A DNA stretch of 64,000 nt from an uncultured bacterium (GCA_949285455.1 CASDXP010000005.1:2756-66755), one strand, 5' to 3'; shown: positions 26,689 to 55,414, counted from the stretch's first letter. Made by a program: numbers and translations. Notes: generated from the sequence alone by a model not told the origin.

Positions 26689-26741
26689 TTTTTCATTATT
26701 TCTTTATTGTTAAATAAAGTGTGATTATTTATCATAAAAAT

Positions 26742-27836
26742 ATGAAAAGGAAATTACTTCTACTCACAGCATTAATATTGCCGTTAGCAAGTTGCGATTT
26801 CTTTAAGCAATTTTTGCCTGACCCACCTTCACCTCCTAATCCCCCAGTGGAAGGTGATCAATTAAATATAATCGCCCTTGAGATGAAAGGAAGATATGGC
26901 GATAGTCTCATCATTAAATATAACGATTACGACATCTTAGTGGATGCTGGAACGGAAAGCGATGAAGATACAGTACAAGAGGCTTTAGTAAAATATGTGA
27001 CAGATAAAACAATCGATTTATTAATTCTCACTCATCTTCATAGTGACCACATCGGGGCGATGCAAGATGTAAGCTTTTTTAAATCGATTGGAATGAATGT
27101 TAAAACTTTCATCGATCCTGATACTTTACCAACTTCTAAAACGGCAGAAAATTATGTTGATATGCGCGAAGCTTTCGTTAGCGAGGGCAGCGATTACATT
27201 TCGTATTATGATTTAATTAATATTACAGAATATAAAAGAAAGATTTATTTGAGCGAAGAAGATAATATTTATCTAGAGTTCTTTGATACAGGCGCGGTAG
27301 CGAAACCAAAAGAAGAAGTAAGTGATTTAAATTCTTCGAGCATCGCTTGTGTTTTAAATTATTCTAATAGTAAAGTTTTCATGGCTGGTGATTTACCATC
27401 TAGCGAAGAAGAAGCTTTAATAAATAGTATGGATGCTTCGCAAAGAAATTATTTTAAAGAAGAAAATCAAGTGTTATATAAGACGTGTCATCACGGAAGT
27501 ATTACTTCCAATGGCGATGAACTTTTAACATATGTTAAACCAGATACCATTTTTTCTATGTCTGGTATTTTATCAAGCAATCAAGAAAACGCACCTTTAG
27601 AAGACCAACATCCTTACATAGCCGCTATTAACCGTATGGCTAAATATTCTAAAGATATTTATTGGACTTCCATTAACGGAACGACAGTTTTTTCTTCTAA
27701 AGGCGATATATTTACTAAAACATTCGCTGGCCGCACGGTGGATTATTACCTCGATGGTAAGATAGTAAGTAGAGAAGAAGAAAAAGATATTACTTTTTTA
27801 AATAGTGCTTGGTATAAACAATTAAGTCAGACATAA
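26742..27836 (+). CDS. Metallo-beta-lactamase-fold hydrolase lipoprotein (ComEC C-terminal-domain-like)
   Basis: Lipobox LPLASC. HxHxDH motif LTHLHSDHIG. ATG 26742 preferred (MKRKLLLLTALILPLASC). Confidence 0.55.
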   Translation: MKRKLLLLTALILPLASCDFFKQFLPDPPSPPNPPVEGDQLNIIALEMKGRYGDSLIIKYNDYDILVDAGTESDEDTVQEALVKYVTDKTIDLLILTHLHSDHIGAMQDVSFFKSIGMNVKTFIDPDTLPTSKTAENYVDMREAFVSEGSDYISYYDLINITEYKRKIYLSEEDNIYLEFFDTGAVAKPKEEVSDLNSSSIACVLNYSNSKVFMAGDLPSSEEEALINSMDASQRNYFKEENQVLYKTCHHGSITSNGDELLTYVKPDTIFSMSGILSSNQENAPLEDQHPYIAAINRMAKYSKDIYWTSINGTTVFSSKGDIFTKTFAGRTVDYYLDGKIVSREEEKDITFLNSAWYKQLSQT

Positions 27837-28066: not shown

Positions 28067-29248
28067 ATGTTATTACAATTTTCAACGGTGAATTTTAAAT
28101 CATTTAAAAACGAAGTAACTTTAAATTTGGTAGCTAACAATTTTAAAGAACACGAAGAACGCATTATTTATTTTAATAATGAAAGAGTGCTGCCTCTCGT
28201 CGGTGTTTTTGGTGCGAATGCTTCAGGTAAAAGCAATTTATTAGAAGCTTTTTTCTTCGCTGTCAATTTGATAAGAAATTCTTTATCTTCTCAAACATCA
28301 GAAGAACTTTTTAATATAAAGCCTTTCATGTTTGATGATTCTAAAGATAATTCGCCTTCATCCTTCGATTTTATTTTTGTTAAAGATGGGGTGAAATATG
28401 AATATGGTTTTGCTATTGATAAGAAGTGTGTTATTGAAGAATATTTATATGTATATAAAAGCCAAAAACCATCTTTAGTTTTTGAAAGAAAAAATGTCAA
28501 TGAATATCATTTTAGAGATTATGCTCGTCACGAATTATCGCCGATTGTGTCAAGAACTCTGCCTAATAAATTGTTTTTATCGGTCGCCGCAAATTTCAAC
28601 GCCAAACTTGTCAAAGCTTGTTTTGATTGGTTTAAGAACGATATCAATTTCTATTTTGAACAAGCGATTGAGGAAAAGGCAATTCTAGATGCTATTAAAG
28701 ATGAAAAGATGAATAAATTTATCGCTGATTTTTTAAATCACGCTGATATCAATATATCAAATATTAAATGGCAAATTGCTAAAATAAATAATCAACAAAA
28801 GATTAATTTTAAGACCATGCATCTCATCAGAGCTAATGGGGAATTAAAAGAGTTTTCCTTAGATATAAAAGATGAATCACACGGCACACAAAAATTGCTT
28901 TCATACGCGCCTTTGTTTTATAAAGCGCTAAACTTTGGCGGAGTGGTCGTCATCGATGAGATAGATAATGCTATCCACGTTGAGCTCATGAAATACATCA
29001 TCTCGTTATTTAACGACCCGTTAATAAACAAAACCTCTGCCCAACTTATTTTCAACGCTCAAAATGCCCTCTTGTTAGATTTAGATATTATGCGTCGTGA
29101 TCAAATTTGTTTTGTCGAAAAAAACTTCCTTACTGGTGTTTCTTCTCTTTATTCGCTCGATGAATTTAAGGTGCGCCTGGATGATAAAGTACTAAAAAAA
29201 TATCTAGAAGGAAGATATGGAGCATTACCGAACATCATTTATGAATGA
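28067..29248 (+). CDS. AAA_15/AAA_21-type ATPase (AbiLi/RloA-like abortive-infection ATPase)
   Basis: 393-aa ORF. Walker A GANASGKSNLLEA. Walker B VVIDEIDNAIH. ABC/SMC-like architecture. Stop overlaps the downstream start (ATGAATGA). Confidence 0.6.
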   Translation: MLLQFSTVNFKSFKNEVTLNLVANNFKEHEERIIYFNNERVLPLVGVFGANASGKSNLLEAFFFAVNLIRNSLSSQTSEELFNIKPFMFDDSKDNSPSSFDFIFVKDGVKYEYGFAIDKKCVIEEYLYVYKSQKPSLVFERKNVNEYHFRDYARHELSPIVSRTLPNKLFLSVAANFNAKLVKACFDWFKNDINFYFEQAIEEKAILDAIKDEKMNKFIADFLNHADINISNIKWQIAKINNQQKINFKTMHLIRANGELKEFSLDIKDESHGTQKLLSYAPLFYKALNFGGVVVIDEIDNAIHVELMKYIISLFNDPLINKTSAQLIFNAQNALLLDLDIMRRDQICFVEKNFLTGVSSLYSLDEFKVRLDDKVLKKYLEGRYGALPNIIYE

Positions 29249-29864
29249 AATTATAGTTGGACAAAAGAGGCGAAAATTAAATTCTCGTCTCGATAAAAAA
29301 CTTATCCTCCTAGGTGTAGAAGGAAAAAATAGCACCGAAGCGTCCTATTTTCTTAATTTTAATCGCCTGCAAAATACTTATCGTATCAAAATCGCTAAGG
29401 GGCGAGATACGCATCTATTAAGTATAATAGATGAATTAAATTTGTGCCGTAAAGACACCGATTTTAAAAAAGGAGATTTAATGTATTGTATTTTCGACTT
29501 AGATAATGATCCATATAAAATAAAAGTAGCGGATGAGTTGATAAAAAAATATCGTAAGCAAGACATTATTTTTCTTTATTCTAATCCTTGTTTTGAATTA
29601 TTTTTTCTTTGGCATTTTATTTATTCGACGAAGCCTTATTCAAATAGTCGTAAAGTTATTACTGATTTAAAAAAACACATGCCATATTACGAAAAGAACA
29701 TTAATTGTTTTCACTCATTATTTTCTAAAATTGAAATAGGGATTAGAAACAGTGAAAACATAATGTTTTATCATAGTAGGCATAAACAGTTTGGTATTTA
29801 TTTAAATCCAGTAACTAAAGTTCATGTATTAGTAAAATTATTATTTTCTTTTATACAACGTTAA
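29241..29864 (+). CDS. RloB-like (TOPRIM-like) protein, AbiLii-like partner of the upstream ATPase
   Basis: N-terminal LILLGVEGKNSTEASYF matches the RloB signature (..CEGxKTExxYF). ATG 29241 overlaps the ATPase stop. The ORF track start at 29217 is also possible. Confidence 0.55.
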   Translation: MNEIIVGQKRRKLNSRLDKKLILLGVEGKNSTEASYFLNFNRLQNTYRIKIAKGRDTHLLSIIDELNLCRKDTDFKKGDLMYCIFDLDNDPYKIKVADELIKKYRKQDIIFLYSNPCFELFFLWHFIYSTKPYSNSRKVITDLKKHMPYYEKNINCFHSLFSKIEIGIRNSENIMFYHSRHKQFGIYLNPVTKVHVLVKLLFSFIQR

Positions 29865-30741: not shown

Positions 30742-31299
30742 CTATAACGTCAAAGTAAAAACAAAAGCAAATATAATTGCGTTAAGCGACGCTAAAATTG
30801 AATAAATTTCGATAGGAATACTTTTAATTTTTTCTTCATTTTGTTCTTTTTCCTCATTTTCTTCTTCATCACTTTCAATCGATTCTAAAGGTTTAGAAAT
30901 AGTTCGCCCTCTTCTTTTAAAATGTTTCATTCTTGTTTGCTGATATAAATATCTTGCTAGCCAAATTATCGTTACCGTAACAAAAAGCAAAACTATAAAA
31001 CTTGGAATATCTAGTGGTTCGTTGATATCAAGATTTAATTTGTAAGTATATTCAACGTAAGCAAAAAGGATGATATCTATGATTAAAATTATGATAGAAA
31101 TGGGAAGCATATAGGTATATTCTCTTTTAGTCATTTTCTTTCTAATTTGATCTTTAGTTAACGCTCCTACTTTATTATCGATATGAAGCCATTTCTTCTT
31201 AAATATTTCTATCAATATAGAGGGATATAAAATCTGAAATAAACTTAATCCTATAATTGCGTATAAATATGAATACATTGATGATTGCCTACCCTTCAA
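30742..31299 (-). CDS. Small polytopic membrane protein, paralog of 31303..31848 (orphan immunity-protein candidate)
   Basis: 185-aa ORF, 3-4 predicted TM helices. N-terminal ~55 aa are closely similar to the neighbouring gene, then diverge. Acidic C-terminal tail. Confidence 0.4.
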   Translation of the reverse strand: MKGRQSSMYSYLYAIIGLSLFQILYPSILIEIFKKKWLHIDNKVGALTKDQIRKKMTKREYTYMLPISIIILIIDIILFAYVEYTYKLNLDINEPLDIPSFIVLLFVTVTIIWLARYLYQQTRMKHFKRRGRTISKPLESIESDEEENEEKEQNEEKIKSIPIEIYSILASLNAIIFAFVFTLTL

Positions 31300-31302
31300 C
31301 GA

Positions 31303-31848
31303 TTAATACAATATTAGAATTGGTATGAGGATGAAACTATTGAACAAAATAATTGAAGTATATAGTGTCATTGCAGCATTTTTGCCTGATTCATTCAAAA
31401 CCCATTTCATTCTTTTCCATCTCTCTCGTGCAGTATGCCGCCCATGGGCTAAATAACCCCCATCGACGGCTTTTATATTTCTTCCAAATATTTTTTTTCT
31501 TGCTTCGTAATAAACGTCAATAATTGCAGAAGCAAGAACAGCAAAGACAAAAAGCAATATTATTATGGAAGCAGCTACTATTAATGGCTTATCCATTGTA
31601 ATTGTGTATTGAAAAGCACAAAAACAATAAATTAGAAGAGTAGCGTTTATTATTAGAATTGGCAAAGAAACTAGAGTTAGAAAAATATGTTCCCTTTTTC
31701 CCATTTTATTTCTTACTTCTCTTTTAGATAAAGTTCCATTTTCATTATCGATATGGAACCATCGTTTTTTAAAAATAGTTATCAACAAAATGGGGAATAA
31801 AATTAGAAATAAACTTAACCCTATAATTGTATATAAATATGGATACAT
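31303..31848 (-). CDS. Small polytopic membrane protein immediately downstream of the RHS toxin gene (cognate immunity-protein candidate)
   Basis: 181-aa ORF beginning 22 nt after the RHS stop on the same strand. Hydrophobic helices. Confidence 0.4.
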   Translation of the reverse strand: MYPYLYTIIGLSLFLILFPILLITIFKKRWFHIDNENGTLSKREVRNKMGKREHIFLTLVSLPILIINATLLIYCFCAFQYTITMDKPLIVAASIIILLFVFAVLASAIIDVYYEARKKIFGRNIKAVDGGYLAHGRHTARERWKRMKWVLNESGKNAAMTLYTSIILFNSFILIPILILY

Positions 31849-31869
31849 TAGATTGCCTACCTGTTTCTA

Positions 31870-34800
31870 TTAATTTTTATTATTTTCTATTATTCCATAC
31901 ATTGATGAATTAAGGAAATCGCTTATTAAATTTTCGAATTTGTCTGAAATTATTTCTAGAAATTTAGGAGTTATAGATGTGCCTAACCTTGCTATTAGCC
32001 TCCCAAATATTTTATCCATTCCATTAGTGAGCTCTCCAAATATGTTAGTACTTATTCCGCTTACAACTCCGTTCATAAAAGAAGTAAAGAGATCCATATC
32101 AGTACCATACGTTAAAAAATCAGTAACTATTGAACCAATAATTTCGCCTGCAAAGGTAGCAACCACATCTACAATAAGCCTGGTGATTTTATAATATATA
32201 TGATTCAAACTAACAGCAGCAAATAATCCGCTTATAAATCCGCTTACAAATGCACCTAAATATTCTTGCCATGATGACCATTTCCATCTAGAAAAATCTA
32301 ATTGGTAATTGATTAGGTTCATTATGATATCTGTGACAAATAATGTAGCGACGCTTATTGCTGCAAATATTATTCCATATAGTAGTGCGGTTAATATCCA
32401 AATCCTTCCGCTTGAATCAACGTACTTAATAGGATTGTTTCTACAATAGATGTATAAATTTAAACCATTAAGTTGAGTTTTAGTTTCATCTAAGATTGAT
32501 AATTCATCACGTGAAATAAATCTAGCGAAGAAGGGACTATAATATCTTGCATTTAGATAATATAAATTAGATTCAGCGTCATAATAATAACTACGATATC
32601 TAAATGGGTTAATATTACCTATATTTTCTGAAGTGTGATTAATAACCTCGTGATTACCAAAAGCATCATATTCATAACTTGCAACTAGAGTTAAATCATC
32701 TTGCTTATAAATGTTTATAATGTCACCAAAAATATTTTTCTCATAAATGTAACTAGTGCCATTATGAGTAAAACCTATTAACGATTTATTCAAGTAATGG
32801 TATTCAATATCTTTCGAACTAGATTTTTCTCTTAAAATAAGATTATTTGATAAATAATATGTTGTTTTTTCACCATTTATTGTTTTTGAAGTTCTAATAC
32901 CGTTTAAATTATAAGTGTAACTAACATTATCAAAATTAATTAAATGCGATTCATTATTCCAAACGAAGGTATGATTATCATATGAAGTAAGTCTTCCTAA
33001 GGCATCGAAAGTTACATCTTTATCATTGACTCTTCTTAAGATATCTTTATTTGATGAAACGTTATAATAGAAGTTATCTACATGCGTGGAATCTAATAAT
33101 ATTTCATCTTCGTGAGTGTAATCATAAGTTGTTCTATTAACTAAATTACCATTTGCATCATAACTATACGTTATCGTTTTATTTAGTTCTTTATTATCTT
33201 CTCTAATTAAACGATCAACTTTATCGTATTTATAATAAGTATTACCAATATCACTTTTTACTTTGGTGACGTTAAGAAGTTTATCGTAATCGTAAGAATA
33301 ACGATGATAAACATTACTTCCAATAATATTTTCTAGCAATTTAATATTTGTAAGAGTCTTTTTGTCAGTGGTGAAATAATTTAAATTCTGTCTTAATAAA
33401 ACATTAGAATTAGTGTCCTTTATTTCGTTATATGTAAGACGACCAAAAACATCAGATTTTAAATTCGCTAAATAGTTAGATGAAGTGATAGAAGTTAATC
33501 TTAAGGTTTTACTATCATAAGAATAACTAGAAGATATAGTCTTATCGCCTAGATTGATACTTTCACTATCCAAACAATTTTTATTAGCGAAAGAATAAGT
33601 GTGAATAACATTAAGTTCATCGTAAGCATCAATTTCTTTAGTTAATCTATCGTAATCATCGTAAGTATATGAAATCGATTCTTCACCTTTTTCAATTTTT
33701 ATCAATCTTTTCTTATCATCATAAGTATAGTTAATAGTGGAATTATCGCTTCTCGTCGATTTTATTAAATTACTATCTTTATCATAAATTGAAGAAATCG
33801 TGTAGTTTAACGGACTAATCGTAGTGACTATCTTTTCCCCGTTAGTGACTAAATCGTCGCTGTAATTGCTAGTGTAGGCAAATGAATATAAAGACGATTC
33901 TCCAATTTTTATGTGGGTTTTACGGTGCTTATAATCATAAGAATAAGTATAAATTATTCCATCTTGCTCCATGGAAGTTAATAAATCCGATGTATAGTTA
34001 AATTTGATTGGATTAATTAAACCATCATCGTTATAAGAAAGATCCACTAGTTTTTGTGAATAGATATCGTAGCCTAATGATAATGTAGAATTATTTGGCC
34101 CGATGATAGTAGTAGGATATCTTGAATTAGAAAGATAATTAATCTGATAATCATCCTCATTTGTGAGTCTTCCTAATTCATCATAAACACTAGTTTTTTC
34201 TTGTTTTAAAGAAGGGGAATCTAAATTATATTGATAAGTTTTGTTCTTAAAACCTAATTCATCATAATTTATTTCTTTAACGTTATTTAAATTATCTATC
34301 GTACGAATTAATCGATTGTAATTATCGTAATCGTATTTCTTTTGAGCTGTAACACCGTAGATATCGTTAGAGACTTCCCTTACCAGATTTGAGTTTCTAT
34401 ATTCGTAATCTATTACGTTAGATGGGCTTAATTTTCTTAGTAAATGTAAGTCGTCATCATAAATATTAATTTCACCAATGACTTCATAAATTTTCACTTC
34501 TAAGTTAGTAAAGAAAGAAGAAGGAATTTCTAAATCAGAAGTAATTTTGATCGTTACCTTACTAACTAAATTATTGAAGAAAACCGGAATAGCTATTTGA
34601 GGGGTGATTCTATCGTAATGAATAGTGTAACTCGCTAGGTCGCCGGTCGCTATTATTTCAATCGATAATTCATTTTCATTATTGATATCAAAATTTGTTA
34701 TATTTGAAAAATCTATGATCGTGGCGGCAAGCAAATATTTTTTTGCAAAATCAATTTCACTTTTTAAAATTTGTAAAGTAAAACTACCATTTGAATAACT

Positions 34801-37800
34801 AACGTTTGTGTAGTTTTTAGTTGCAAGTAAATTTCTTTCTTCATAGCTTACATCGAATACGATATTTCTTTCGTTATAACTTTTATAAGAGGAAGAAGAA
34901 GTGAGCAAATCTAAATCTATGTTTTTTCGATAGATGATGTCACCGTTTTTATTGACGTAAACTGTCGTTTTATTATTGTTTATATTATCTTCAGCGGTAA
35001 TTTCAAAATTGTTCGCATTGACTCCCACATCTTCGATACTAGAATTGTCTACAATTTTATTTGTGATAAGGCCATCTTCAATACGAAGAGTTTTATTCGT
35101 GATATTGTATCCTTTAAATTTCATTTCGCTCCAAATGAAATTAATCTTTTCAGAGTTTGAATTCTCGACGGAGGTAAGATTTTTATAAGTATCGTAGGTA
35201 AATGTTAGTTTTTCCTCGTTTCCTTTATAGCCTTTAAAAATAATTTCATCTTGACCATCGCCTAATGTAAGAAGTCTAGTCATCTTAAATTTAGTTTCGA
35301 TTAGATTAGGATCGATGATGGAAGATAGAAGACCATTTTCATCGTAATTGATAGTAATTGTTTGCACAGATGAAGCAATTTCTACAAGGTTATCGTCGAT
35401 GTATTTAAGAGTTATTTCGTTTTCATTTAAATCGGAAATATAAATTAATCTTCCATAGTAATCAAATCCAAAGATTAAACCCTCTTCGCTTAAAAGGAAA
35501 TCTTGTGCATTATCTTTTTGCGCTAAGACTTCATTAGCCTTCAAAGTTCTATAATAATCGATATCTTTTTTATATCGATCGATTCTTTCTAATATGTCTT
35601 TGATAGAAAGTTTAATCGATTCAATTTGATGATTGTAACTTACGCTTGTGGAATTGAATGAATTAATTTGTGAGGCAGTTATTTGTTCTTCATTATTTAT
35701 CAGTTCACTAAAAACAGAATTCATCGTTTCCATTTGATTAGCGGTTTCTTCTTCCATTTGTTTTAAAGATAATAAGTATTGTTGAGCTTGTTTTGTTAAA
35801 TCTTTTAAAGTCGATTCATATTGTTCAATGGTACTTTCGATAGAAACTATATTTTCATTTTCATAGTAATCAGGTTTAATGTAAGTTTCATCGATATTTT
35901 TTGCATAATAATGATTTAACTCTAACTCGTTCGTAGCAATAGAATAAGCTTCCTTATTGTTAGTATTTAATTTGTAATAATATTTTGGTATGAGCGCAAA
36001 GTATTGTTCTTCTTTTATAGCGATAGAACAATTAATTAAGATAGGATTAACTTTTGTATTAGAGGATTTTAAATAATAACTGCCATTCTTATATTCGACT
36101 TCATTAGGAAAGTAGACAGCATATTGTAAAATTGCCTCATTCTGAGCATAAGTAACATCATTGAAATACATTGATAATAAAGAACGAACTTCGCTTTCAT
36201 CGTCAATTCTCGCCTTTGCTTGACCAATAAAACTAGTAATTTTAATTTGTCCGTTTTCATCTACTACCTTATCAATTGTTTCTAGCGGATCATCGTAAGT
36301 GAAGTGGTGGGTTAGTTTGACTTCTTTTTTCGAAGCCATATTTAAACTGTTCGCAGAGGAAATATAAGTAAGCCCATTAGAACTTATGACTTCGTAAGTT
36401 ACTTCGTGGACGTTACCGTGTCCATCTTTAAATTTATATTTTTGATCGCTATCTAGATAGACACTTTTATTGCTCACTAGATGATAAGAGCCGTCATTAT
36501 TTAAGTAGTACCATTTTTCGTAGAATGTATGAATATTTCCATTTCCATCAATGTAATGAATTTCATTTTGTAGTGCATCGATGTTATTTTGCTTACTTTT
36601 AATTAATCGAGAAGATAAGTTAAAAGCCCAACCTTTTGGAAGCCCCTTAATTTTATCTGCTGCTCTAAATAAATTTCTCGAATCATAATAAAAATTAAGA
36701 TTTACGCTCAATGCGTTAGAAGCGATGCTCGTCAGTGGAATTTCATAATGCAAATTACTTGTATATAAATTAGCCCTAAATGAAGAATTGTGACTAAAAT
36801 TATGCGAGATAATTACATTATTTTTATCATCACCAATACTTTGATATTTTGAAGTTATATTGGGGGTATTCTCACTATCGAAGCTAGTTTCATTAGTGAT
36901 AGCGATAAAAGGATTATTTTCTTTATTGTCAGCGACATATTCTAACGTTAATGTAATTGGTTCAATCGTTACATTTTCTTCTTTACGCTTAACGTCATCG
37001 TTAACGAAAGACGAAATATCGATTCGTAATAAATTATGAGAAGAATTGATAGGAACATTAGCGATGATAGTTTCACCATAAGACACTTTTATGTAATCGA
37101 GATCACTCACATTATCGCTAGCGTCAAATTTGATGTTAATAAACGATAAAAAATGTTCATTGCCTCTATCTTTTAATAATGAGGTAATTTCATCCATGTT
37201 GAGATTAATTTTTGTTAAGTTATTAACGCTATCTATGTAACCGCATATAGTTTTACCAGGATAGACATAATTATCGTTCGAATCTTTTATTTCTATAAGC
37301 GAAACATAGTTATATCTAAAATAAAGTTTAAGATTGACGCTTTGATTGGTGCTTAGATAAGCACTATTTGCTGTAATTATGATAGTTTTAGAAGATGTAA
37401 GATTATTAACTACTTGCACGTCAAAATCTTCACACGATATTTCCCCATCATTAGTCTCTAAATATGGTTCTAATATAAATCCATTATCAGTTCCAAAGAA
37501 ATTAACTTTTTTATCATCAACCTCCATTAATAGCGATGTAACAAAGCCAAGTGAGACTACACTATCACCAGTTTTTAAAGGTATTGTTAACAAGCACCCA
37601 TCGTTCGTAGATATAAGTGTATAGGCGGGACCAGGAATTGTGCCGCTTGTAGTTATTGTAGTTGGTCCATTGAAATAAACTATGGGAGATGGTCTGCTAG
37701 CAGTAGCAGAACTATTAACTCCATAAATTTGTTTATATATAGAGCACGTTAATGAAACAGAATCTTTATTTAAACTAAATGAAAAAGAATTATGTATAGT

Positions 37801-38106
37801 AGAACCATCACTAGCGATATAGGGAGTAGATATTTTTACATTTTTATTCAATGCTGAAATTGTTCGACTTTGTCCAGATAAGTTTTTGGCTAGAAGAAAA
37901 CTATTTTGAATAGGGACAACACTATTAGAAATATTAATAAAAGAAACTGGATGAGTGTATAATTTTATGTCAAGTTCATTAATTTCTTTAGAATAAATAC
38001 TAGATAATGAAAGTTTTAAGTCCTTATTTTTGTAATCGCCCATATAAGGAATATTCGCGTGATTCTTTTTTAAAAAGATGTCTTTAAAATTAAATTTATT
38101 TTGCAT
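31870..38106 (-). CDS. RHS/YD-repeat polymorphic toxin (2078 aa) with hydrophobic C-terminal extension
   Basis: Very long ORF. Many YD repeats (YTYDDKKRL, YTYDDYDRLTKE, YDANGNLVNRTTYDY). Terminal core ends in the ..NNPIKYVDSSGR.. motif, followed by a 177-aa hydrophobic tail. No N-terminal signal peptide seen. Confidence 0.85.
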   Translation of the reverse strand: MQNKFNFKDIFLKKNHANIPYMGDYKNKDLKLSLSSIYSKEINELDIKLYTHPVSFINISNSVVPIQNSFLLAKNLSGQSRTISALNKNVKISTPYIASDGSTIHNSFSFSLNKDSVSLTCSIYKQIYGVNSSATASRPSPIVYFNGPTTITTSGTIPGPAYTLISTNDGCLLTIPLKTGDSVVSLGFVTSLLMEVDDKKVNFFGTDNGFILEPYLETNDGEISCEDFDVQVVNNLTSSKTIIITANSAYLSTNQSVNLKLYFRYNYVSLIEIKDSNDNYVYPGKTICGYIDSVNNLTKINLNMDEITSLLKDRGNEHFLSFINIKFDASDNVSDLDYIKVSYGETIIANVPINSSHNLLRIDISSFVNDDVKRKEENVTIEPITLTLEYVADNKENNPFIAITNETSFDSENTPNITSKYQSIGDDKNNVIISHNFSHNSSFRANLYTSNLHYEIPLTSIASNALSVNLNFYYDSRNLFRAADKIKGLPKGWAFNLSSRLIKSKQNNIDALQNEIHYIDGNGNIHTFYEKWYYLNNDGSYHLVSNKSVYLDSDQKYKFKDGHGNVHEVTYEVISSNGLTYISSANSLNMASKKEVKLTHHFTYDDPLETIDKVVDENGQIKITSFIGQAKARIDDESEVRSLLSMYFNDVTYAQNEAILQYAVYFPNEVEYKNGSYYLKSSNTKVNPILINCSIAIKEEQYFALIPKYYYKLNTNNKEAYSIATNELELNHYYAKNIDETYIKPDYYENENIVSIESTIEQYESTLKDLTKQAQQYLLSLKQMEEETANQMETMNSVFSELINNEEQITASQINSFNSTSVSYNHQIESIKLSIKDILERIDRYKKDIDYYRTLKANEVLAQKDNAQDFLLSEEGLIFGFDYYGRLIYISDLNENEITLKYIDDNLVEIASSVQTITINYDENGLLSSIIDPNLIETKFKMTRLLTLGDGQDEIIFKGYKGNEEKLTFTYDTYKNLTSVENSNSEKINFIWSEMKFKGYNITNKTLRIEDGLITNKIVDNSSIEDVGVNANNFEITAEDNINNNKTTVYVNKNGDIIYRKNIDLDLLTSSSSYKSYNERNIVFDVSYEERNLLATKNYTNVSYSNGSFTLQILKSEIDFAKKYLLAATIIDFSNITNFDINNENELSIEIIATGDLASYTIHYDRITPQIAIPVFFNNLVSKVTIKITSDLEIPSSFFTNLEVKIYEVIGEINIYDDDLHLLRKLSPSNVIDYEYRNSNLVREVSNDIYGVTAQKKYDYDNYNRLIRTIDNLNNVKEINYDELGFKNKTYQYNLDSPSLKQEKTSVYDELGRLTNEDDYQINYLSNSRYPTTIIGPNNSTLSLGYDIYSQKLVDLSYNDDGLINPIKFNYTSDLLTSMEQDGIIYTYSYDYKHRKTHIKIGESSLYSFAYTSNYSDDLVTNGEKIVTTISPLNYTISSIYDKDSNLIKSTRSDNSTINYTYDDKKRLIKIEKGEESISYTYDDYDRLTKEIDAYDELNVIHTYSFANKNCLDSESINLGDKTISSSYSYDSKTLRLTSITSSNYLANLKSDVFGRLTYNEIKDTNSNVLLRQNLNYFTTDKKTLTNIKLLENIIGSNVYHRYSYDYDKLLNVTKVKSDIGNTYYKYDKVDRLIREDNKELNKTITYSYDANGNLVNRTTYDYTHEDEILLDSTHVDNFYYNVSSNKDILRRVNDKDVTFDALGRLTSYDNHTFVWNNESHLINFDNVSYTYNLNGIRTSKTINGEKTTYYLSNNLILREKSSSKDIEYHYLNKSLIGFTHNGTSYIYEKNIFGDIINIYKQDDLTLVASYEYDAFGNHEVINHTSENIGNINPFRYRSYYYDAESNLYYLNARYYSPFFARFISRDELSILDETKTQLNGLNLYIYCRNNPIKYVDSSGRIWILTALLYGIIFAAISVATLFVTDIIMNLINYQLDFSRWKWSSWQEYLGAFVSGFISGLFAAVSLNHIYYKITRLIVDVVATFAGEIIGSIVTDFLTYGTDMDLFTSFMNGVVSGISTNIFGELTNGMDKIFGRLIARLGTSITPKFLEIISDKFENLISDFLNSSMYGIIENNKN

Positions 38107-38259
38107 GTTTCCCCTTTCTTATATGATAAATGATTTTATTGATAAAATGAATGAAAATAGGATTAAGTTAAATGTTTTTAATCATTTATGAAGTAATTAT
38201 TTACTTCTTTAGTTATAATGTAGTTGTTTTAAAAGAAAAGAAAGGTAGAAATAAATAAT

Positions 38260-39660: not shown

Positions 39661-42237
39661 ATGAATTTAAAGAAATTTGTTCTATTACCTCTAGCTGCTT
39701 TAGTTCTTGCTAGCTGTGGTCCTAATGTCGTTCCTCCCGAAGGCATTTCTGTCGCCGCAGCTGAAACGACTTTAGAGATGGGCGATACGATGACTCTCAC
39801 CGCCACTCTTACGCCTGCAGATGCTGAAGCAGATATCACTTGGTCTTCAAGTGACACCGAAGTTGCCACTGTCGATGCGACAGGTACAGTTACAGCTGTT
39901 GGTTTAGGCGAAGTTGAAATTACGGCGACCGTTGTCAGCGATGACATCATTCTCCGCGATTCCGTTACTTTAGCCGTCAATCCTGATGTGGAAGCAGTGC
40001 TTGCAAGTATCGCAACTGAAATTGCTGTTACTGGTACCGCAAGTCTTGTTGCTCCAGGAGGAAGTCTAGGTTCCTTCGCTTTTGATACTTACCTTAACGT
40101 TAACCAAGGTGAAATGCAATTGTATTGGTCTTCCGAAGGTTCCGTCTATAGCTATTTCGCTGATGAAGAAGGTTATCTTGTCGATTACGTTTTAAATAAT
40201 CATAATGAAGTACAAGTAATTTCTTATACTTCTGGTGGTCAACCAGTCCCCGCTGAAAACTACATCACTTATTCCTTCGGCGCGATCACCGCTTCTGAAG
40301 TGGTAGTTACCACTCCAACCCAATTAGATGTCGCAATTGGTGAAGATCATGGTGCAGTAGATTTAGCAGTCGAATTATCTGGTTACATCTGCGACGTCAC
40401 CGATACTGTTACGATCAATCTTAATAAAGATGGTAGCGTTGCATCTCTTACTGTCGTCGGTCACGGTGTAGCTGAACTTACTGGTGGTTCTACTACCGAT
40501 TACGTTAATACAGTTACCGCAACTGTTACGACCAAAGAAGCCATCGGCGCTCCAAATAAAGCTACACCAATGCCAGAATTAACTGGTGATGATGCCGCTA
40601 TTGTCAATTCATTCCTTACCGGTTTAGAAAATGAAAACTACACATTAGACATCGTCGATACTGGTGAAAGTATTGGTGAAGTTGTCGTCACTGACGACGG
40701 CGTCATTGCCGATGGTACAGTTTTTGCTTTAACGACTGATGGTGTCTATGAAGTTACAGTTGATGAAGAAGCTGGTACGATGACTGCTACTAGCGCAGAA
40801 GCTATTGCTGCTGCAGTTTCAGAACTTCTCAATCCAGTTGATTTCTCACCAAACTTATTTATTCCACAAGGTAATAATGTCTATAAATTAGCTGGTGGTT
40901 TAACTGATAATGTATTACTTGGTCTTGATCCAGCCTTAGTCTTCATTGGTGACTATTATTTAATTCCAAGTATCAATTCAGTTGAAATTACTTTAACCGT
41001 CGAAGGTGCGACCGTTACAGGTGCAACTCTCTCTTATACCTATGATTATTATGGATTAGGTTGGATTATGGGTGATTTAGTCATTACTATCACTAATATT
41101 GGTACGACTGCTTTCCCATATGCTGACTTAGAATTCGTCGAATACGTTCCACCAACTGCTTGGAGTGATGTTACTGGTGACGAAAATTGGTATCAAACTG
41201 CTACTGAAGCTTTAGGCGAAGAAGTTGATAACGTTCCATTCATCGTAGCTGATTGGTATGGTTATGCTGACACTGAAGATTCTGAATTTGGTGTTCAAGC
41301 TTCATTTACTTCTCAAACTGACGCTGTTAATTTAGTTAATTCTTATCTTGCTATTCTTGCGGCTGCTGGTTGGACCGATAGTGGCTTAGTAGATCCTTAT
41401 GGTTCCGTTGCCTACACTAATGGAACGAGCGCAATCTATGTTTCCACAGATGCTTGGTCAAGCGGTTATGACTATATCACCGATATTATCTTCTGGTCCG
41501 TCGATAGCTTAGCACCTGCTGTTACTCAGTGGAGTGATCTTGACGCTGCTTGGGCTGAAGGAATTAACACTACTACCGGTGGCGATATCGATACCGTTCC
41601 ATTCACGGACTTAGGTTGGCAATTAATGAGTGGAAACTACGCTATTGGTGGTGTTACTACAGATGTATATGATGCCTCTTACAATGCTTATTATTTAGAA
41701 TATGCACTCACAGAAGCTGGTTGGACGCAAACTGGATTAATTGATCCAGCAACCGAAAATGAAGTGTGGACATTAGAAGGTAATCCAATTGCTGTATCCG
41801 TTTATCTAGTTACAGTTACTATGACAGATGGTAGCACAGGCTACGCCGTCAAAGTTGATTTCCTTGCTGCTAGCAGTTGTGTTATGCCGCCTGCTGCCAC
41901 TTCTTGGTCTGAATATGATGCTGATTTTGCCGCTTCTATGGAAGCAGCAGGAATTGATGTTGATCTTGTTCCATTCTTAGACGCTGAATGGGCATGCGAT
42001 GCATCTACATCTTCCGCTTACGTCTACACTGATCCAACAACCGCACAAGAAATTTATGACGCTTACGTCGCTCTTTTAGAAGAAGCTGGTTGGACCGCTG
42101 CTGGTGAAGCTGATGAAAGCGGCATCACAACCTTCACTAACCCAGATACAAACGTTACAATTGGTGTTCAATTAGACGTTAGAACTACTTCTGTTGCTTA
42201 CGTTAACTTATACTGGGGCACTAGTGCTGCTGAATAA
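39661..42237 (+). CDS. Large Ala/Thr/Gly/Asp-rich surface lipoprotein: Big_2 domain + shared middle domain + three ~100-aa C-terminal repeats
   Basis: 858-aa ORF. Lipobox LASCG. Big_2 signature ..ITWSSSDTEVATVDATGTVTAVGLGEVEITA.. Three repeats of the pattern W-S-D/E...VPF...Y..LE.AGWT..G. Nucleotide composition is visibly more G+C-rich than its surroundings. Confidence 0.6.
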   Translation: MNLKKFVLLPLAALVLASCGPNVVPPEGISVAAAETTLEMGDTMTLTATLTPADAEADITWSSSDTEVATVDATGTVTAVGLGEVEITATVVSDDIILRDSVTLAVNPDVEAVLASIATEIAVTGTASLVAPGGSLGSFAFDTYLNVNQGEMQLYWSSEGSVYSYFADEEGYLVDYVLNNHNEVQVISYTSGGQPVPAENYITYSFGAITASEVVVTTPTQLDVAIGEDHGAVDLAVELSGYICDVTDTVTINLNKDGSVASLTVVGHGVAELTGGSTTDYVNTVTATVTTKEAIGAPNKATPMPELTGDDAAIVNSFLTGLENENYTLDIVDTGESIGEVVVTDDGVIADGTVFALTTDGVYEVTVDEEAGTMTATSAEAIAAAVSELLNPVDFSPNLFIPQGNNVYKLAGGLTDNVLLGLDPALVFIGDYYLIPSINSVEITLTVEGATVTGATLSYTYDYYGLGWIMGDLVITITNIGTTAFPYADLEFVEYVPPTAWSDVTGDENWYQTATEALGEEVDNVPFIVADWYGYADTEDSEFGVQASFTSQTDAVNLVNSYLAILAAAGWTDSGLVDPYGSVAYTNGTSAIYVSTDAWSSGYDYITDIIFWSVDSLAPAVTQWSDLDAAWAEGINTTTGGDIDTVPFTDLGWQLMSGNYAIGGVTTDVYDASYNAYYLEYALTEAGWTQTGLIDPATENEVWTLEGNPIAVSVYLVTVTMTDGSTGYAVKVDFLAASSCVMPPAATSWSEYDADFAASMEAAGIDVDLVPFLDAEWACDASTSSAYVYTDPTTAQEIYDAYVALLEEAGWTAAGEADESGITTFTNPDTNVTIGVQLDVRTTSVAYVNLYWGTSAAE

Positions 42238-50046: not shown

Positions 50047-50124
50047 GGCGAATGTGGTGAAGTGGTTAACACAACCGGCTGTGAACCGGTCATTTCGCGG
50101 GTTCAACTCCCGTCGTTCGCCCCA
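50047..50124 (+). tRNA. tRNA-His (anticodon GTG) with encoded G-1 and 3' CCA
   Basis: Cloverleaf folded by hand. 8-bp acceptor stem GGCGAATG/CGTTCGCC (G-1:C73, one G-U). Anticodon stem CCGG/CCGG with loop CTGTGAA. T-arm GCGGG-TTCAACT-CCCGT. CCA at 50122..50124. Confidence 0.8.
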
Positions 50125-50167: not shown

Positions 50168-51463
50168 TTAGATACAAAACGCTGCGTAAAGAGGAATTGT
50201 TTTATTATCATCTTCAAAGGCAAAATTTTTACTCGATAGTTTGATAGCGTAAGCGGGCTTATAAGCATCCATATAAACTTTTAATCTTTTAGCTTTGCTA
50301 TTATCAGCGGATTTGACTTCGATGGGAATAAGTTTACCTTCACGTTGAATGATAAAATCTATTTCCGCTCCACGGTCGGATTCCCAATAGTAGGTGTTAT
50401 ATCCGTTGATGGAAAGTTGGACGTTAGCGTAGTTTTCAGCCATACCTCCTTTGAAGTCATTTAATTCCGGAGTCATATAAAAAATATCGTCAGGAGTTAA
50501 ATCTTTCTTCGCGGAAAGTAAACCTAAATCCGATACGTAAATCTTGAAGGCATCGATGTCACGATAATTTTCTAAAGGTTTTTTAATTTGTTCGACTTTA
50601 TAAACTTTCGATACGATACCAGTTAAACTAAGCCATTCGATAGCGTTTTCAAGCTCGGAAGCTCGACCGCCTTTTTTGACTAACTTATATTGAAAACGAG
50701 TATTTTTCTTAGAGAGTTGGACCGTAATGTTATCGTAGACGAGTCTAGTTTTTTTAATTTCATTTAAGTTGTTATATTTGCTCATATCATCAAGATAACT
50801 TGTAAGGATATTATCTTGCGTATGGCGTACAAGAATATAGTCTTTCGTCTCCACGAATTGTCTGACGCACTCTGGCATTCCACCTACGATGAGATATTGG
50901 CGGTAGAGTTCCATCGCCTTATTGTGAAGAGCGGAAGGCATAGGTGAATTAGTGTTAAAATACTTTTTAATTTGCGTTACAAGATCATCTTCTTTCATCG
51001 CGATCATAAATTCTTCCATGTCCATAGGATACATAGTTTTCATATCGACTTTACCGACGGGAAAAGAAAATTTTGAACGATTGACCGCCACACCCAAAAG
51101 ACTTCCAGCGACGATAATGTGATAATCAGGGGCCTCTTCGCAAAAATATTTTAATGAGGTCAAAGCTCTTTCACAAAGTTGTATCTCATCGAACACGATG
51201 AGCGTTTTTTCTTTGACGATCGTTTGCCCGGCAATATGAGATAAAATCGGTATCAAATATGTAGGGCTAATATTTTCTTCAAAAGTTTCATTTAGCTTGG
51301 GATTAGTTTCAAAATTAAAGTAGGCGACATTTTCATAATGGCTACGCCCAAACTCTAAAATAGAGTAGGTTTTACCTACTTGCCTCGCTCCTTGTAAAAT
51401 GAGAGGCTTACGATATTTGCTTTCTTTCCACGCTTCTAAAAAGTCGATGATTTTTCTATACAT
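50168..51463 (-). CDS. AAA+ ATPase with C-terminal DUF4143/PD-(D/E)xK-like domain (paralog of 3766..5124)
   Basis: 431-aa ORF. P-loop GARQVGKT, Walker B IVFDEIQ. C-terminal EIDFII..IEVKSA is a D..ExK motif. Confidence 0.65.
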   Translation of the reverse strand: MYRKIIDFLEAWKESKYRKPLILQGARQVGKTYSILEFGRSHYENVAYFNFETNPKLNETFEENISPTYLIPILSHIAGQTIVKEKTLIVFDEIQLCERALTSLKYFCEEAPDYHIIVAGSLLGVAVNRSKFSFPVGKVDMKTMYPMDMEEFMIAMKEDDLVTQIKKYFNTNSPMPSALHNKAMELYRQYLIVGGMPECVRQFVETKDYILVRHTQDNILTSYLDDMSKYNNLNEIKKTRLVYDNITVQLSKKNTRFQYKLVKKGGRASELENAIEWLSLTGIVSKVYKVEQIKKPLENYRDIDAFKIYVSDLGLLSAKKDLTPDDIFYMTPELNDFKGGMAENYANVQLSINGYNTYYWESDRGAEIDFIIQREGKLIPIEVKSADNSKAKRLKVYMDAYKPAYAIKLSSKNFAFEDDNKTIPLYAAFCI

Positions 51464-51940: not shown

Positions 51941-53149
51941 GTGAAAATTGAGCGAAAAGATTATTTAGAAAAATTAATTGCACTTAAAGATAAGCATCTT
52001 ATCAAAATCATCACTGGCGTGCGTCGATGCGGTAAGTCGACATTGTTTGAAATTTATCAAGATTATCTTCTCACCCATGGCGTTTTAGAAGATCAAATCA
52101 TCAGCATCAATTTTGAAGATTACGATTACGAAGCTTTGAAGGAGCCTAAAAAACTATATGATTACATCAAAGATAGACTGATTGATGATAAGAAAATGTA
52201 CATATTTTTAGATGAAATTCAAAATGTGAAAGATTTTCATAAAGTCGTCGATAGTTTGTTCATTAATAAGAATGTTGATCTCTACATTACTGGCTCGAAT
52301 GCTTACTTGCTTTCGTCTGAGATTGCTACTTTAATTTCTGGGCGTTACATCGAAATAAAAATGTTACCTCTTTCATTTAAAGAATATGTTTCTAGTAGCG
52401 GTAGTGAAATTGATTTAGCAAATAAATATCGAAAATACATTGAATTTAGTTCTTTTCCTTACGTTTTAGAATTAGATGAAAATAAGGATATTATTAAAGA
52501 TTATTTAGAAGGCTTATTAAATACAATTGTTTTAAAAGATGTCGTTCAGAGAAATAAAATATCGAACATTTTACTATTCAAAAGTGTTTTACGTTTTATC
52601 TTTGATAATATTGGTTCTCAATTATCTAGTAAAAAGATTGCGGATACGTTAACCTCAAGCGGAAGAAAAGTGGATTCTAAGACGGTTGAAAAATATCTTC
52701 AAGCGTTGATGGAGTGTTACGTAATTTATCAAGCGAGTCGCTACAACATCAAAGGAAAAGAATACTTAAAAACACTAGATAAATATTATGTTGTGGATAT
52801 TGGCTTAAGATATTCTTTATTAGGCACGAGTTTTCGCGATAGCGGACATATATTAGAAAATGTCGTTTATTTAGAACTATTAAGAAGGGGACAAGAAGTT
52901 TATATTGGTAAAATTAACGATTTAGAAGTCGATTTTGTTGCGATGTCTAAAAACAACATGACTTACATCCAAGTAGCGGCTTCTATCAAAGATGAAAAAA
53001 CGTTAGAAAGAGAACTTATCCCATTAGAAAAAATTGATGATTCATATCCTAAATATATTTTGACGTTAGATGATGCGCCAGAGGCTAATTATAAAGGAAT
53101 TAAGATCGTCAATGCTTTGGATTGGTTACTAGGTAAAGTTTGGCCTTAA
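51941..53149 (+). CDS. AAA+ ATPase (AAA_14-like) with C-terminal DUF4143/PD-(D/E)xK-like domain, distinct subfamily
   Basis: 402-aa ORF. GTG start 7 nt after AGGAGGG. P-loop GVRRCGKST, Walker B IFLDEIQ. C-terminal DLEVDFV...IQVAAS. Confidence 0.65.
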   Translation: MKIERKDYLEKLIALKDKHLIKIITGVRRCGKSTLFEIYQDYLLTHGVLEDQIISINFEDYDYEALKEPKKLYDYIKDRLIDDKKMYIFLDEIQNVKDFHKVVDSLFINKNVDLYITGSNAYLLSSEIATLISGRYIEIKMLPLSFKEYVSSSGSEIDLANKYRKYIEFSSFPYVLELDENKDIIKDYLEGLLNTIVLKDVVQRNKISNILLFKSVLRFIFDNIGSQLSSKKIADTLTSSGRKVDSKTVEKYLQALMECYVIYQASRYNIKGKEYLKTLDKYYVVDIGLRYSLLGTSFRDSGHILENVVYLELLRRGQEVYIGKINDLEVDFVAMSKNNMTYIQVAASIKDEKTLERELIPLEKIDDSYPKYILTLDDAPEANYKGIKIVNALDWLLGKVWP

Positions 53150-53756: not shown

Positions 53757-55169
53757 CTAAATATCTTTAATTAAATTCTTATTTTTCCAATTTCCTTTTT
53801 TCCAACGAATATAGAATGCGAGTGCGCGAATACATTCATCTAGACACGCACCGATGAAGGCACCATATATGCCTAGATTACAAACGATAGAAAGTAAAGC
53901 GCTTAACCCAACTGTAAAAAGCCAAGAAGTGGAAACGCTCATGATGACAGGAAAAGCAATGTCACCTGCAGTTTCTAAGCCTTTAACGTACACTAGATTT
54001 GTCGCTCTTCCTTGCTCTAATAAAACATTTATCGATAAACATATAAGTGCAGCGATACCGCAATATATCAAGCTCATTCCCTCGGTATTAATTGTTGGGT
54101 TATCGATAGCGGGAGCCATAATGGAAGTGAAGACAGGATAAGCGATAGCGAGAACAATTAAAGATAAGAAAAAAGAAATGAGACGCGACATACGTCCGAC
54201 ATCATAAACGATCTTATTTGCCGCTTCCTTATTATTTTCTCCAAGTAATGTTCCTTCTATGACTTGCATTGCAAGTCCTACTCCTTGTGCAAATAGATAA
54301 ATAATAGAAGTAAAAGTCATGATGTAAGTGCGAAGATTTTGATCGAGAACACTACAAGAATAATTAATGATGATCATCAAAACGAATTGAGAAAGATTAT
54401 AAGATAAAGTTTCTCCGGCGGTAGGAAGACCAATTTTTAATTGCCTTTTTAAAAGTAAAGAAGGGAAGGGCTTAAGTTCTTTTAAAGATATTTTGGTTTT
54501 AACTTTCACTTTAAAAAATATGTAAGAAATAATAAGCGATAAAAAGCGTGAGATAAAAGTAGCTAGACCTACCCCAATGATTTTTCCATCTAAATCTAAG
54601 TTTGGTATACCCCACAAGACAATTGCGACGATGATAATATTGATGACACCCATAAATATGGAAATAAGAGTTGGTTCAATCATTCTTTTATTCGCTCTTA
54701 AAAAATTAGAAAAAGCTTGATTTAAGGAATAAAAAATAAGTGATGGAGCGCTCACATATAAATATAACTTCGCATAAGGAATAATATTTATATCCACCTG
54801 CATCCAATCGAAAATAAATGGAGCAATAGCGATTAAAATAATAGCCACTAAAATGCCTAATATTAAGTTTAAGAAAATGGTTAACGGATAGATTTTTTTA
54901 ATGCCACTTTCATTATGTGCACCGCGAAGTTGAGCGATAAGAATAAGTGACGATGTAGCGAGGACGCTAAAAGAGACGATAAAAATATTTGATATTTGAT
55001 TCACTTGACCAATTGCGTTCGTGCCTTCAGGAAAAGAAGCGAACATGAATTGGTTAATATAACCAATGCCAACGGTTAAAATTAACTCGACGATGATAGG
55101 CAAGGCGAGTTTTAAGACATTTTTATTTTCTTTAAATAATTTGATGTAGTGAAAGCCATGCGTCTTCAT
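53757..55169 (-). CDS. MATE-family multidrug/oligosaccharidyl-lipid efflux transporter
   Basis: 470-aa ORF with 12 predicted TM helices in a two-lobe MATE-like arrangement. Confidence 0.75.
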   Translation of the reverse strand: MKTHGFHYIKLFKENKNVLKLALPIIVELILTVGIGYINQFMFASFPEGTNAIGQVNQISNIFIVSFSVLATSSLILIAQLRGAHNESGIKKIYPLTIFLNLILGILVAIILIAIAPFIFDWMQVDINIIPYAKLYLYVSAPSLIFYSLNQAFSNFLRANKRMIEPTLISIFMGVINIIIVAIVLWGIPNLDLDGKIIGVGLATFISRFLSLIISYIFFKVKVKTKISLKELKPFPSLLLKRQLKIGLPTAGETLSYNLSQFVLMIIINYSCSVLDQNLRTYIMTFTSIIYLFAQGVGLAMQVIEGTLLGENNKEAANKIVYDVGRMSRLISFFLSLIVLAIAYPVFTSIMAPAIDNPTINTEGMSLIYCGIAALICLSINVLLEQGRATNLVYVKGLETAGDIAFPVIMSVSTSWLFTVGLSALLSIVCNLGIYGAFIGACLDECIRALAFYIRWKKGNWKNKNLIKDI

Positions 55170-55414
55170 AGAATAAAGATTTTAGCAACATATTTTATAT
55201 TAGCAATAGCAAATATAAGAAAAAGTGAAAAAATATAATTGATAAATTCATCTATAACACGTTTTACAAAAAAGAAAAATTTAACCGCAAAAATATTTAA
55301 AAATAAAAGTTTTGCGATTTAACTAAAAATTAAAGTCCTTAAGATTAAATCATTTTCTTTTGCATAAATAAAAGATTAAGTTATATGTTCTAATTGTTGA
55401 AAGGAAGAAAAAAT

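Follow-up and report, generated by a model that had tools for sequence, protein, structure and literature searches.

A stretch of 64,000 nucleotides from an uncultured gut-type bacterium (GCA_949285455.1, CASDXP010000005.1:2756-66755; hereafter the window, meaning the whole stretch that was analysed) carries on its minus strand the gene of a giant RHS/YD-repeat protein, followed by two small membrane-protein genes, here named S1 and S2. We estimate at roughly 70% the probability that these genes form a three-gene Rhs polymorphic-toxin module for competition between closely related strains, the toxic part being an encapsulated, self-cleaved and membrane-depolarising C-terminal domain (CT). The domain composition, the conservation of the catalytic residues, the co-diversification of the CT tip with S1, the mobility of the module and the occurrence of orphan immunity pairs were all observed directly by comparison. 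The concept of Rhs polymorphic toxins is established; what is new here is the CT family, the immunity family, an unusual insertion in the shell and the lack of a recognisable delivery domain. An earlier note, made from the sequence alone, had placed three open reading frames (ORFs) on the minus strand (RHS, 31870-38106; S1, 31303-31848; S2, 30742-31299), and all three were recovered at these positions. The features on which the argument rests are the following.

31870-38106, minus strand: RHS/YD-repeat toxin gene; 2078 residues, strong Shine-Dalgarno sequence AAGAAAGGGGAAACATG, without signal peptide
32407-32670, minus strand: RHS-associated core and predicted aspartyl autoprotease plug; residues 1813-1900 with D1867 and D1897, from TIGR03696 and alignment
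31873-32406, minus strand: CT; residues 1901-2078 (178 residues), predicted all-helical, hydrophobic, following the RHS core
31341-32226, minus strand: hypervariable toxin-tip and immunity cassette of ~0.9 kb; RHS residues ~1961-2078, spacer and most of S1
31303-31848, minus strand: S1, putative cognate immunity protein; 181 residues, four transmembrane (TM) helices
30742-31278, minus strand: S2, putative second or orphan-type immunity protein; 178 residues from the ATG at 31278, four TM helices

Identity of the RHS protein and its core

In profile searches, the 2078-residue protein matched RHS_repeat (PF05593) with 38.4 bits (cut-off 22) and YD_repeat_2x (TIGR01643) with 38.1 bits (cut-off 15.8), and eight to nine YxYD-type motifs were located between residues 879 and 1847. 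The RHS-associated core (TIGR03696) was found at residues 1813-1900 with 69.9 bits (cut-off 32.5, E 1.9e-19); the terminal stretch ...CRNNPIKYVDSSGR corresponds to residues 1888-1901. The description of this gene in the earlier note as a YD-repeat protein with an RHS core was therefore confirmed, all three models scoring above their curated cut-offs and both catalytic aspartates being present. The RHS shell seemingly starts near residues 450-530, where the segment ...LNFYYDSRN...GLPKGWAFNLSS...IHYIDGNGN aligns with the start of a distant relative, P0091.

All sequence relatives of this protein in the PDB are Rhs or Tc proteins (among them RhsP, RHS2, TccC, YenC2, Tse15 and Tse5). Residues D1867 and D1897 align with both catalytic aspartates of RhsP (8h8a), RHS2 (5kis) and TccC2, and they are invariant across the orthologues. 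In the alignment with RhsP 8h8a, RFISRDE corresponds to RFIQQDP and YVDSSG to IDPTG; in 8h8b, an entry related to 8h8a, the position of the second aspartate is occupied by alanine (IAPTG).

The C-terminal domain and its family

Hydropathy analysis located three TM-like segments in the CT (residues 1902-1920, 1949-1967 and 1977-1995), which are the only ones of the whole protein, and small-xxx-small motifs number 15 per 177 residues in the CT versus about 5 in the body. The AlphaFold2 (AF2) model of the CT, obtained with 21 sequences, contains five helices with a predicted local distance difference test (pLDDT) score of 55; the confidence is moderate up to residue 80 of the domain and low beyond it. 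Compared with the PDB by Foldseek, this model gave no match with E<1, and the CT profile search against the PDB returned only chance matches to helical repeats. A Pfam scan of eight CT-bearing sequences (the CT of the window included) and of two putative immunity proteins encoded downstream of distant toxins gave no family; DUF7396, which appeared in that scan, was rejected, its match (20.7 bits) lying under the cut-off and covering one TM helix.

When the CT profile was used to search 1.84 billion representatives, 28 proteins were found, and the RHS core precedes the CT in every one of them whose upstream sequence is present. The three full-length relatives of the family (P0075, P0081 and P0091) have neither a signal peptide nor a known trafficking domain. 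The core shared by the family is a TM helix followed by D-x14-W-x2-S-x-W-x2-Y-x-G...G-x2-G-G, with about four further predicted helices after it, and no Pfam, PDB or PHROGs family covers this core. As judged from these searches, the CT family is rare, uncurated, new and confined to the C-termini of RHS proteins. At three distant CT loci the next gene encodes a different small TM protein, unrelated to S1, which fits a membrane-acting toxin paired with a membrane immunity protein. By analogy with the toxins compared below, we regard the CT as a putative membrane-depolarising or pore-forming toxin.

Two observations concern the surroundings of the distant homologues. Directly upstream of P0081 lie a Phage_holin_5_2 gene and a nucleotidyltransferase gene (locus L014, 4772-5065); this holin gene is at most a weak hint of a link to the release of a signal-less toxin, and may be a coincidence. 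At the locus of P0091 (L015, 13398-16047; GCA_009777485.1), phage-fibre-like genes (Gp10_C, Phage_fiber_rpt) follow the pair formed by the RHS gene and the TM-protein gene.

The downstream genes S1 and S2

S1 and S2 are paralogues (35% identical) with four TM helices each. The close same-strand spacing described in the earlier note was found again, with corrected distances: the gap between the RHS gene and S1 is 21 nt, not 22, and the revised start of S2 gives a gap of 24 nt. This start is most likely the ATG at 31278, not the TTG at 31299, because the same GGTAGGCAATC ribosome-binding stretch precedes S1 and S2; the gene calls of related loci also use the ATG start for S2. The S1/S2 family comprises 19 clusters at 90% identity, at least nine of them of S1, with no relatives outside this lineage, and represents a new 4-TM immunity family. 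In PHROGs, neither the RHS protein nor S1 or S2 had a match. A role of S2 as an export or release factor was also considered and judged unlikely, S2 being a clear paralogue of S1 that is kept together with it after deletion of the RHS gene.

Strain comparison and the putative toxin-immunity cassette

Full-length relatives of the RHS protein form three 90%-identity clusters among 5.8 billion proteins; their 22 members come from metagenome assemblies and belong to one uncultured lineage. Twenty-one near-full-length members were aligned and about 15 related loci were compared. The full-length orthologues are 82-94% identical overall and about 60-97% identical across the N-terminal 400 residues. 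Five CT types were distinguished by locus: A (window and L003), B (L001), C (L007), D (L009) and E (L011). The pairwise amino-acid identities between types were as follows, ZupT and flavorubredoxin being encoded in the flanks.

ZupT: 93-100%
Flavorubredoxin: 92-100%
RHS body: 85-97%
CT tip (residues 1961-2078): 42-69%
S1: 52-67%
S2: 65-97%

S1 is 100% identical solely in the pair of loci with an identical CT. By the Nei-Gojobori method, nonsynonymous divergence (dN) reached 0.33 in the CT tip and 0.28 in S1, with 0.03-0.07 in the RHS body and 0.02-0.03 in the flanks, and its ratio to synonymous divergence (dN/dS) was 0.41 both for the CT tip and for S1, the flanks giving 0.05-0.06. Per-site diversity in the 21 orthologues is highest at residues 1951-2078, and at 90% identity these orthologues fall into six clusters by their CT, versus three by the whole protein. 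The hypervariable part of S1 consists of TM3 and the TM3-TM4 loop (residues ~81-160), its first 60 residues being conserved; S2, less variable than S1 between types, is N-terminally truncated in type-C strains.

At the DNA level (60-bp sliding comparison), the bins of the cassette are mostly 38-77% identical between the window and types B, D and E, versus 93-100% outside it. Type C is closer to the window within the cassette, with identities of 0.90-0.97 over 31927-32046, and a conserved island at 31687-31806 corresponds to the N-terminus of S1. The comparison of the window with L011 illustrates the sharpness of the limits: the flanks are 95-100% (about 100%) identical and the ~0.9-kb block between them 42-77%. 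The variable boundary lies ~60 residues past the core motif, not directly at the motif. Comparison of these loci shows that the block at ~31341-32226 is a swapped cassette consisting of the toxin tip and most of S1, which evolves and recombines as one unit. The variable C-terminus postulated in the earlier note was thereby substantiated, with six CT clusters among the 21 orthologues, a downstream gene that varies along with them and a sharply bounded swapped cassette. The polymorphism is a diversification inside a single family of CTs and a single family of immunity proteins; toxin folds that are unrelated to each other are not exchanged.

Second site and orphan S1-S2 pairs

The module, which consists of three genes only, occurs at two different sites. 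Two further features of the window bear on the second of them.

55170-55393: empty second site, between MatE (53757-55169, minus strand) and RibD_C (55394-56107, plus strand)
38107-38259, minus strand: 5' untranslated or promoter region of the RHS gene; 38121-38180 is retained at 100% identity before orphan S1-S2 pairs

In close relatives (MatE 94% and ParA 95% identical to those of the window) the module sits between Flavodoxin_4/RibD_C and MatE. At the second site, L005 has a complete module with an RHS gene of type B, L017 has a 98-residue in-frame RHS remnant followed by intact S1 and S2, and at least 10 contigs have an orphan S1-S2 pair that follows a deletion scar. The scar was inspected in L018, where blastn revealed that 60 bp of the RHS 5' region (100% identical to window positions 38121-38180) abut the last RHS codons (...YGIIENNKN and the stop codon). 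One scaffold of 198,886 bp, scaffold_14 of ERZ16268140, contains a type-C RHS gene with a type-C S1, plus an orphan type-B S1 located ~10 kb away and 92% identical to the S1 of L001. Elsewhere in the window, no further fragments of CT, S1 or RHS were detected by tblastn.

Immunity that is kept after loss of the toxin, or that is directed against a toxin type that the strain does not make, is a hallmark of inter-strain toxin warfare, and the orphan immunity genes do not easily fit a module that acts inside the cell. The toxin/immunity arrangement that the earlier note had recognised from gene order is supported both by the co-variation of CT and S1 and by the immunity pairs left behind after RHS deletion.

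Comparison with known systems

The closest functional analogue of this Rhs toxin is Tse5 (PA2684) of Pseudomonas aeruginosa, an Rhs effector in which the cocoon encloses a pore-forming CT and brings it to membranes (PMC10684867, PMC9637101). Both have an RHS shell, a two-aspartate aspartyl-protease plug and a small (16-20 kDa) hydrophobic CT past the cleavage site (PMC10684867); the RHS core matches that of Tse5 (8cp6) at the sequence level, and an immunity gene is present in each case (Tsi5 for Tse5, the gene of the 4-TM protein S1 here). However, Tse5 rides a secretion system of type VI (T6SS) by means of its N-terminal region, whereas no trafficking domain was found in the present protein, which belongs to a Bacillota lineage. 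In addition, the two CTs share no detectable similarity, and the window protein has a 445-residue N-terminal region and a coiled-coil hairpin in its shell.

Like WapA of Bacillus subtilis and Streptococcus suis and LrhA of Listeria, the window protein is a Bacillota RHS polymorphic toxin whose CT varies and whose gene is followed by an immunity gene. A Sec signal peptide is present in WapA and absent from the window RHS protein. LrhA is linked to a secretion system of type VII (T7SS), its N-terminus is helical, it contains DUF6531, its WXG100-like partner genes lie beside EssC, and LrhI, its immunity protein, also has a TM segment (PMC10327511); in contrast, none of the helical N-terminus, DUF6531, the WXG100-like partners and EssC is present here. 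TspA/TsaI and EsxX of Staphylococcus aureus represent depolarising T7SS toxins of the glycine-zipper kind, and their immunity proteins are polytopic membrane proteins encoded as tandem paralogues that are diversified by recombination (PMC9484751, PMC12744356). The putative membrane-depolarising CT and the tandem paralogous membrane immunity proteins described here resemble them, but TspA and EsxX are LXG proteins, not RHS proteins, and have no sequence relation to CT, S1 or S2.

The likeness to pore-forming colicins is one of analogy only, no homology having been found. Colicins A, E1 and Ia are not known to carry a signal peptide and have a C-terminal membrane-inserting helical domain together with an immunity protein of 3-4 TM helices, and colicin Ia has a long coiled-coil hairpin for receptor binding. 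Unlike the protein of the window, they have no RHS cocoon or autoprotease, and they are freed by a lysis protein, whereas the window module contains no lysis gene. Finally, Tox-WTIP, the sole pore-forming CT that Zhang et al. 2012 list for polymorphic toxins (PMC3482391), is likewise an RHS-linked, non-enzymatic, membrane-spanning helical domain (PMC3482391), but it is proteobacterial and consists of two helices with RxxR and Wx[ST]IP, whereas the core of the present CT is TM helix...D...WxxSxWxxYxG...GxxGG.

Proposed mode of action and alternatives

According to the mechanism that we propose, the 2078-residue protein would build an RHS cocoon, as its repeats and core suggest, and the aspartyl-protease plug (D1867, D1897) would, to judge from the alignment, cut after ...VDSSGR. 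By analogy with the solved Rhs proteins, a hydrophobic, glycine-zipper-like helical CT of ~20 kDa would then be left enclosed in the shell, and at the target cell it would, as experiments have shown for Tse5, enter the cytoplasmic membrane and dissipate the membrane potential. The co-variation of the two genes suggests that S1, 21 nt downstream, would act as the cognate immunity protein, blocking its own CT type inside the membrane; S2, its paralogue, may be a further immunity protein, one that probably acts on a different CT type.

Several points weigh against this interpretation. Cleavage, encapsulation, pore formation, protection and toxicity are all steps that we infer. The protease motif is degenerate, reading DELS-x25-DSSG (an aspartate spacing of 30 residues) versus the autoprotease consensus of Rhs proteins, DPXGX18DPXG (PMC10684867). 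The AF2 model of residues 1-1200, obtained with six close orthologues, reached a pLDDT of 33, and the cocoon fold was not obtained. The CT gave no sequence or fold match to a known pore-former in Pfam, PDB profile and Foldseek searches, the confidence of its model, low past residue 80, being too low for a decisive fold test. The CT-S1 distances among non-identical types correlate weakly (r 0.43, with 10 non-independent pairs). Furthermore, no export route was found, since a signal peptide, PAAR, LXG, DUF6531 and a WXG100/EssC partner are all absent from the module and from the 64-kb window.

The alternative that survives best, although we consider it distinctly unlikely, is that the CT is toxic at the membrane without forming a pore, for instance by binding and blocking an essential membrane protein or a lipid carrier, with S1 as a decoy or shield. 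The lack of homology between the CT and any pore-former agrees with this, as does the fact that the most variable part of S1 is the charged TM3-TM4 loop and not a TM helix, which suits protein-protein recognition. However, the three TM-like helices, the glycine-zipper-like spacing and the W-rich interfacial motif are typical of depolarising toxins, and Tse5, the sole characterised hydrophobic Rhs CT, forms pores (PMC10684867).

An intracellular abortive-infection or addiction system, in which a cytoplasmic RHS protein would free a membrane toxin on phage attack and S1 and S2 would be the antitoxins, could be suspected from the position of the module beside AbiE and AbiL and from the lack of an export signal in the RHS protein. 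We hold this to be very improbable: RHS, S1 and S2 matched no PADLOC family, the module also occurs at the second site without Abi neighbours, AbiL itself is variably present, and S1-S2 persist intact as orphans after RHS deletion in at least 10 contigs. A strain with immunity to a toxin type that it does not encode is sensible only if the toxin comes from outside.

Equally little credit can be given to a surface adhesin or teneurin-like structural protein with the CT as its membrane anchor and S1 and S2 as unrelated membrane proteins. The size of the gene, the lack of a catalytic toxin domain and the neighbouring Big_2 lipoproteins are compatible with such a protein; nevertheless, with a C-terminal anchor but no N-terminal signal most of the protein would stay cytoplasmic, an anchor should neither evolve faster than every other part nor co-vary with the next gene, and the CT sits past the predicted self-cleavage site. 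Least probable of all is a Tc-like BC toxin aimed at a host or a eukaryote and dependent on an injector of the TcA type, for although the core matches TccC and YenC2 and the size is near that of TcB-TcC fusions, none of the about 15 loci has SpvB/TcdB mid-domains or a TcA gene, and the membrane immunity genes and orphan immunities suggest bacterial targets.

N-terminal region and export

Returning to the proposed competitive Rhs toxin, two features of the protein may bear on how it reaches its target.

36772-38106, minus strand: N-terminal region, residues 1-445; beta-rich in a low-confidence AF2 model, no family
35518-35850, minus strand: antiparallel coiled-coil hairpin inserted in the YD shell, residues 753-863; from AF2 and weak Pfam matches

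The earlier note had reported that no signal peptide and no LXG or PAAR-like N-terminus could be recognised, and this was upheld by the profile searches and by the hydropathy of residues 1-1900. No hydrophobic segment was detected in residues 1-1900 by the hydropathy scan, from which it follows that the protein lacks a signal peptide, including one of the Sec-dependent WapA type. At E<=0.1, neither Pfam nor NCBIfam gave a match to PAAR, LXG, VgrG, SpvB or DUF6531 in the RHS protein, nor to any N-terminus of T6SS Rhs effectors (PAAR, prePAAR or VgrG-interacting). A helical LXG-like N-terminus, DUF6531 and WXG100-like or EssC neighbours, as expected for the T7SSb, were not found in the module and at its two sites, and the SpvB/TcdB mid domains (Pfam) and a TcA-sized gene at the loci compared, as expected for a Tc BC toxin, were not found either. 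In agreement with the earlier note, which had called the export route unclear, no Sec, T6SS or T7SS marker was found.

Residues 1-445 had no match in Pfam, NCBIfam or PHROGs. A search of residues 1-460 against the 5.8-billion-protein set also gave no match, but it missed the known orthologues too, which makes this null result unreliable. Diversity is lower in the first 25 residues (0.08) than in the 175 that follow (0.14-0.17), the N-terminus MQNKFNFKD... is kept in all orthologues, and the RHS ORF cannot be lengthened upstream. The two helices of the hairpin (residues 753-804 and 811-863) are the sole segment of the AF2 model of residues 1-1200 with a pLDDT of ~70, the weak Pfam matches in it are to coiled-coil families (BPS1, DUF948 and TACC), and the distant relative P0091 has a comparable, larger helical insertion. 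Speculatively, the beta-rich region of residues 1-445 and the hairpin are both candidates for targeting or receptor-binding parts.

A secretion-system-independent "RHS bacteriocin" can be proposed tentatively, as a possibility that we consider rather unlikely. The signal-less cocoon would be released, e.g. by lysis of a few producers, would bind a neighbour by its N-terminal region or its hairpin, and would release the pore-forming tail directly into the exposed membrane of a Bacillota cell that is related and possibly wall-less.

Genomic context

The AbiE and AbiL-like defence genes that the earlier note had reported beside the module gave strong PADLOC matches (AbiEi 4.8e-55, AbiEii 1.1e-95, AbiLi 2.5e-85 and AbiLii 4.9e-19). 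The AbiLi/AbiLii pair (28067-29864) is present in the window and in L003, absent from L001, L009 and L011, and represented by fragments in L007. Because AbiL is missing or decayed in several strains and the RHS module is also found elsewhere, the defence island is a neighbour of the module and not functional evidence. Between AbiE and AbiL, a metallo-beta-lactamase (MBL)-fold protein (26721-27836) with a lipobox at about residue 21 and weak LmuA, Avs1a and ComEC-like matches may be a nuclease of the cell surface or part of a defence system. Three short ORFs at 57070-58747 (249, 138 and 184 residues) resemble a second AbiEi/AbiEii-like pair, judging by eye from their N-termini, and may be split or frameshifted.

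TGA is the stop codon of 8 of the 42 ORFs and all 125 tryptophan codons are TGG, so the genetic code is code 11, not the Mycoplasma code. The lineage was assigned to the Bacillota because UvrB and SecA have as their best PDB matches proteins that we take to be those of Bacillus. The large surface proteins of the window lack LPXTG motifs. The richness in lipoproteins pointed out previously holds locally, about 9 of 55 ORFs having an N-terminal lipobox. Many of these predicted lipoproteins belong to orphan families (e.g. those at 15330, 15799, 16535, 39661, 48458, 56572, 59825 and 60490); except for a 5'-nucleotidase at 48458, no NCBIfam model matched them, and nothing lineage-specific was found. 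The segment 40001-42000, which lies inside the gene of an 858-residue Big_2 lipoprotein (39661-42237), has a G+C content of 0.416 vs about 0.30-0.33 around it, and in this region relatives have an extra 437-residue Big_2 gene that the window lacks.

The ORFs at 3766-5124, 50168-51463 and 51941-53149 look like repeated ATPase paralogues, one of them beside tRNA-His (50048-50124); their label, AAA_14/DUF4143, was inferred from genes of related loci, where further copies occur at variable positions. At the edge of the window, a 464-residue ORF (62600-63994) with a helix-turn-helix-like N-terminus looks like a putative transposase or integrase.

Significance

Rhs toxins are understood mainly where the T6SS, the T7SS or Sec carries them, and the Bacillota clade described here has no recognisable export or trafficking domain. 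Cassette swapping and the retention of immunity after toxin loss mean that population genetics shows the toxin to reach other cells. The locus is accordingly a natural test case for the release of a ~240-kDa cocoon and the delivery of a hydrophobic payload, and it offers a well-resolved tip and immunity cassette whose recombination boundaries and deletion scars have been mapped. Should the host prove wall-less, the module would be one of the few documented weapons with which such bacteria compete. If the proposal of an RHS bacteriocin is true, it would amount to a colicin-like lifestyle on an RHS chassis, and the CT family, with its restriction to signal-less RHS proteins, would define a separate class of Rhs toxins that deliver themselves.

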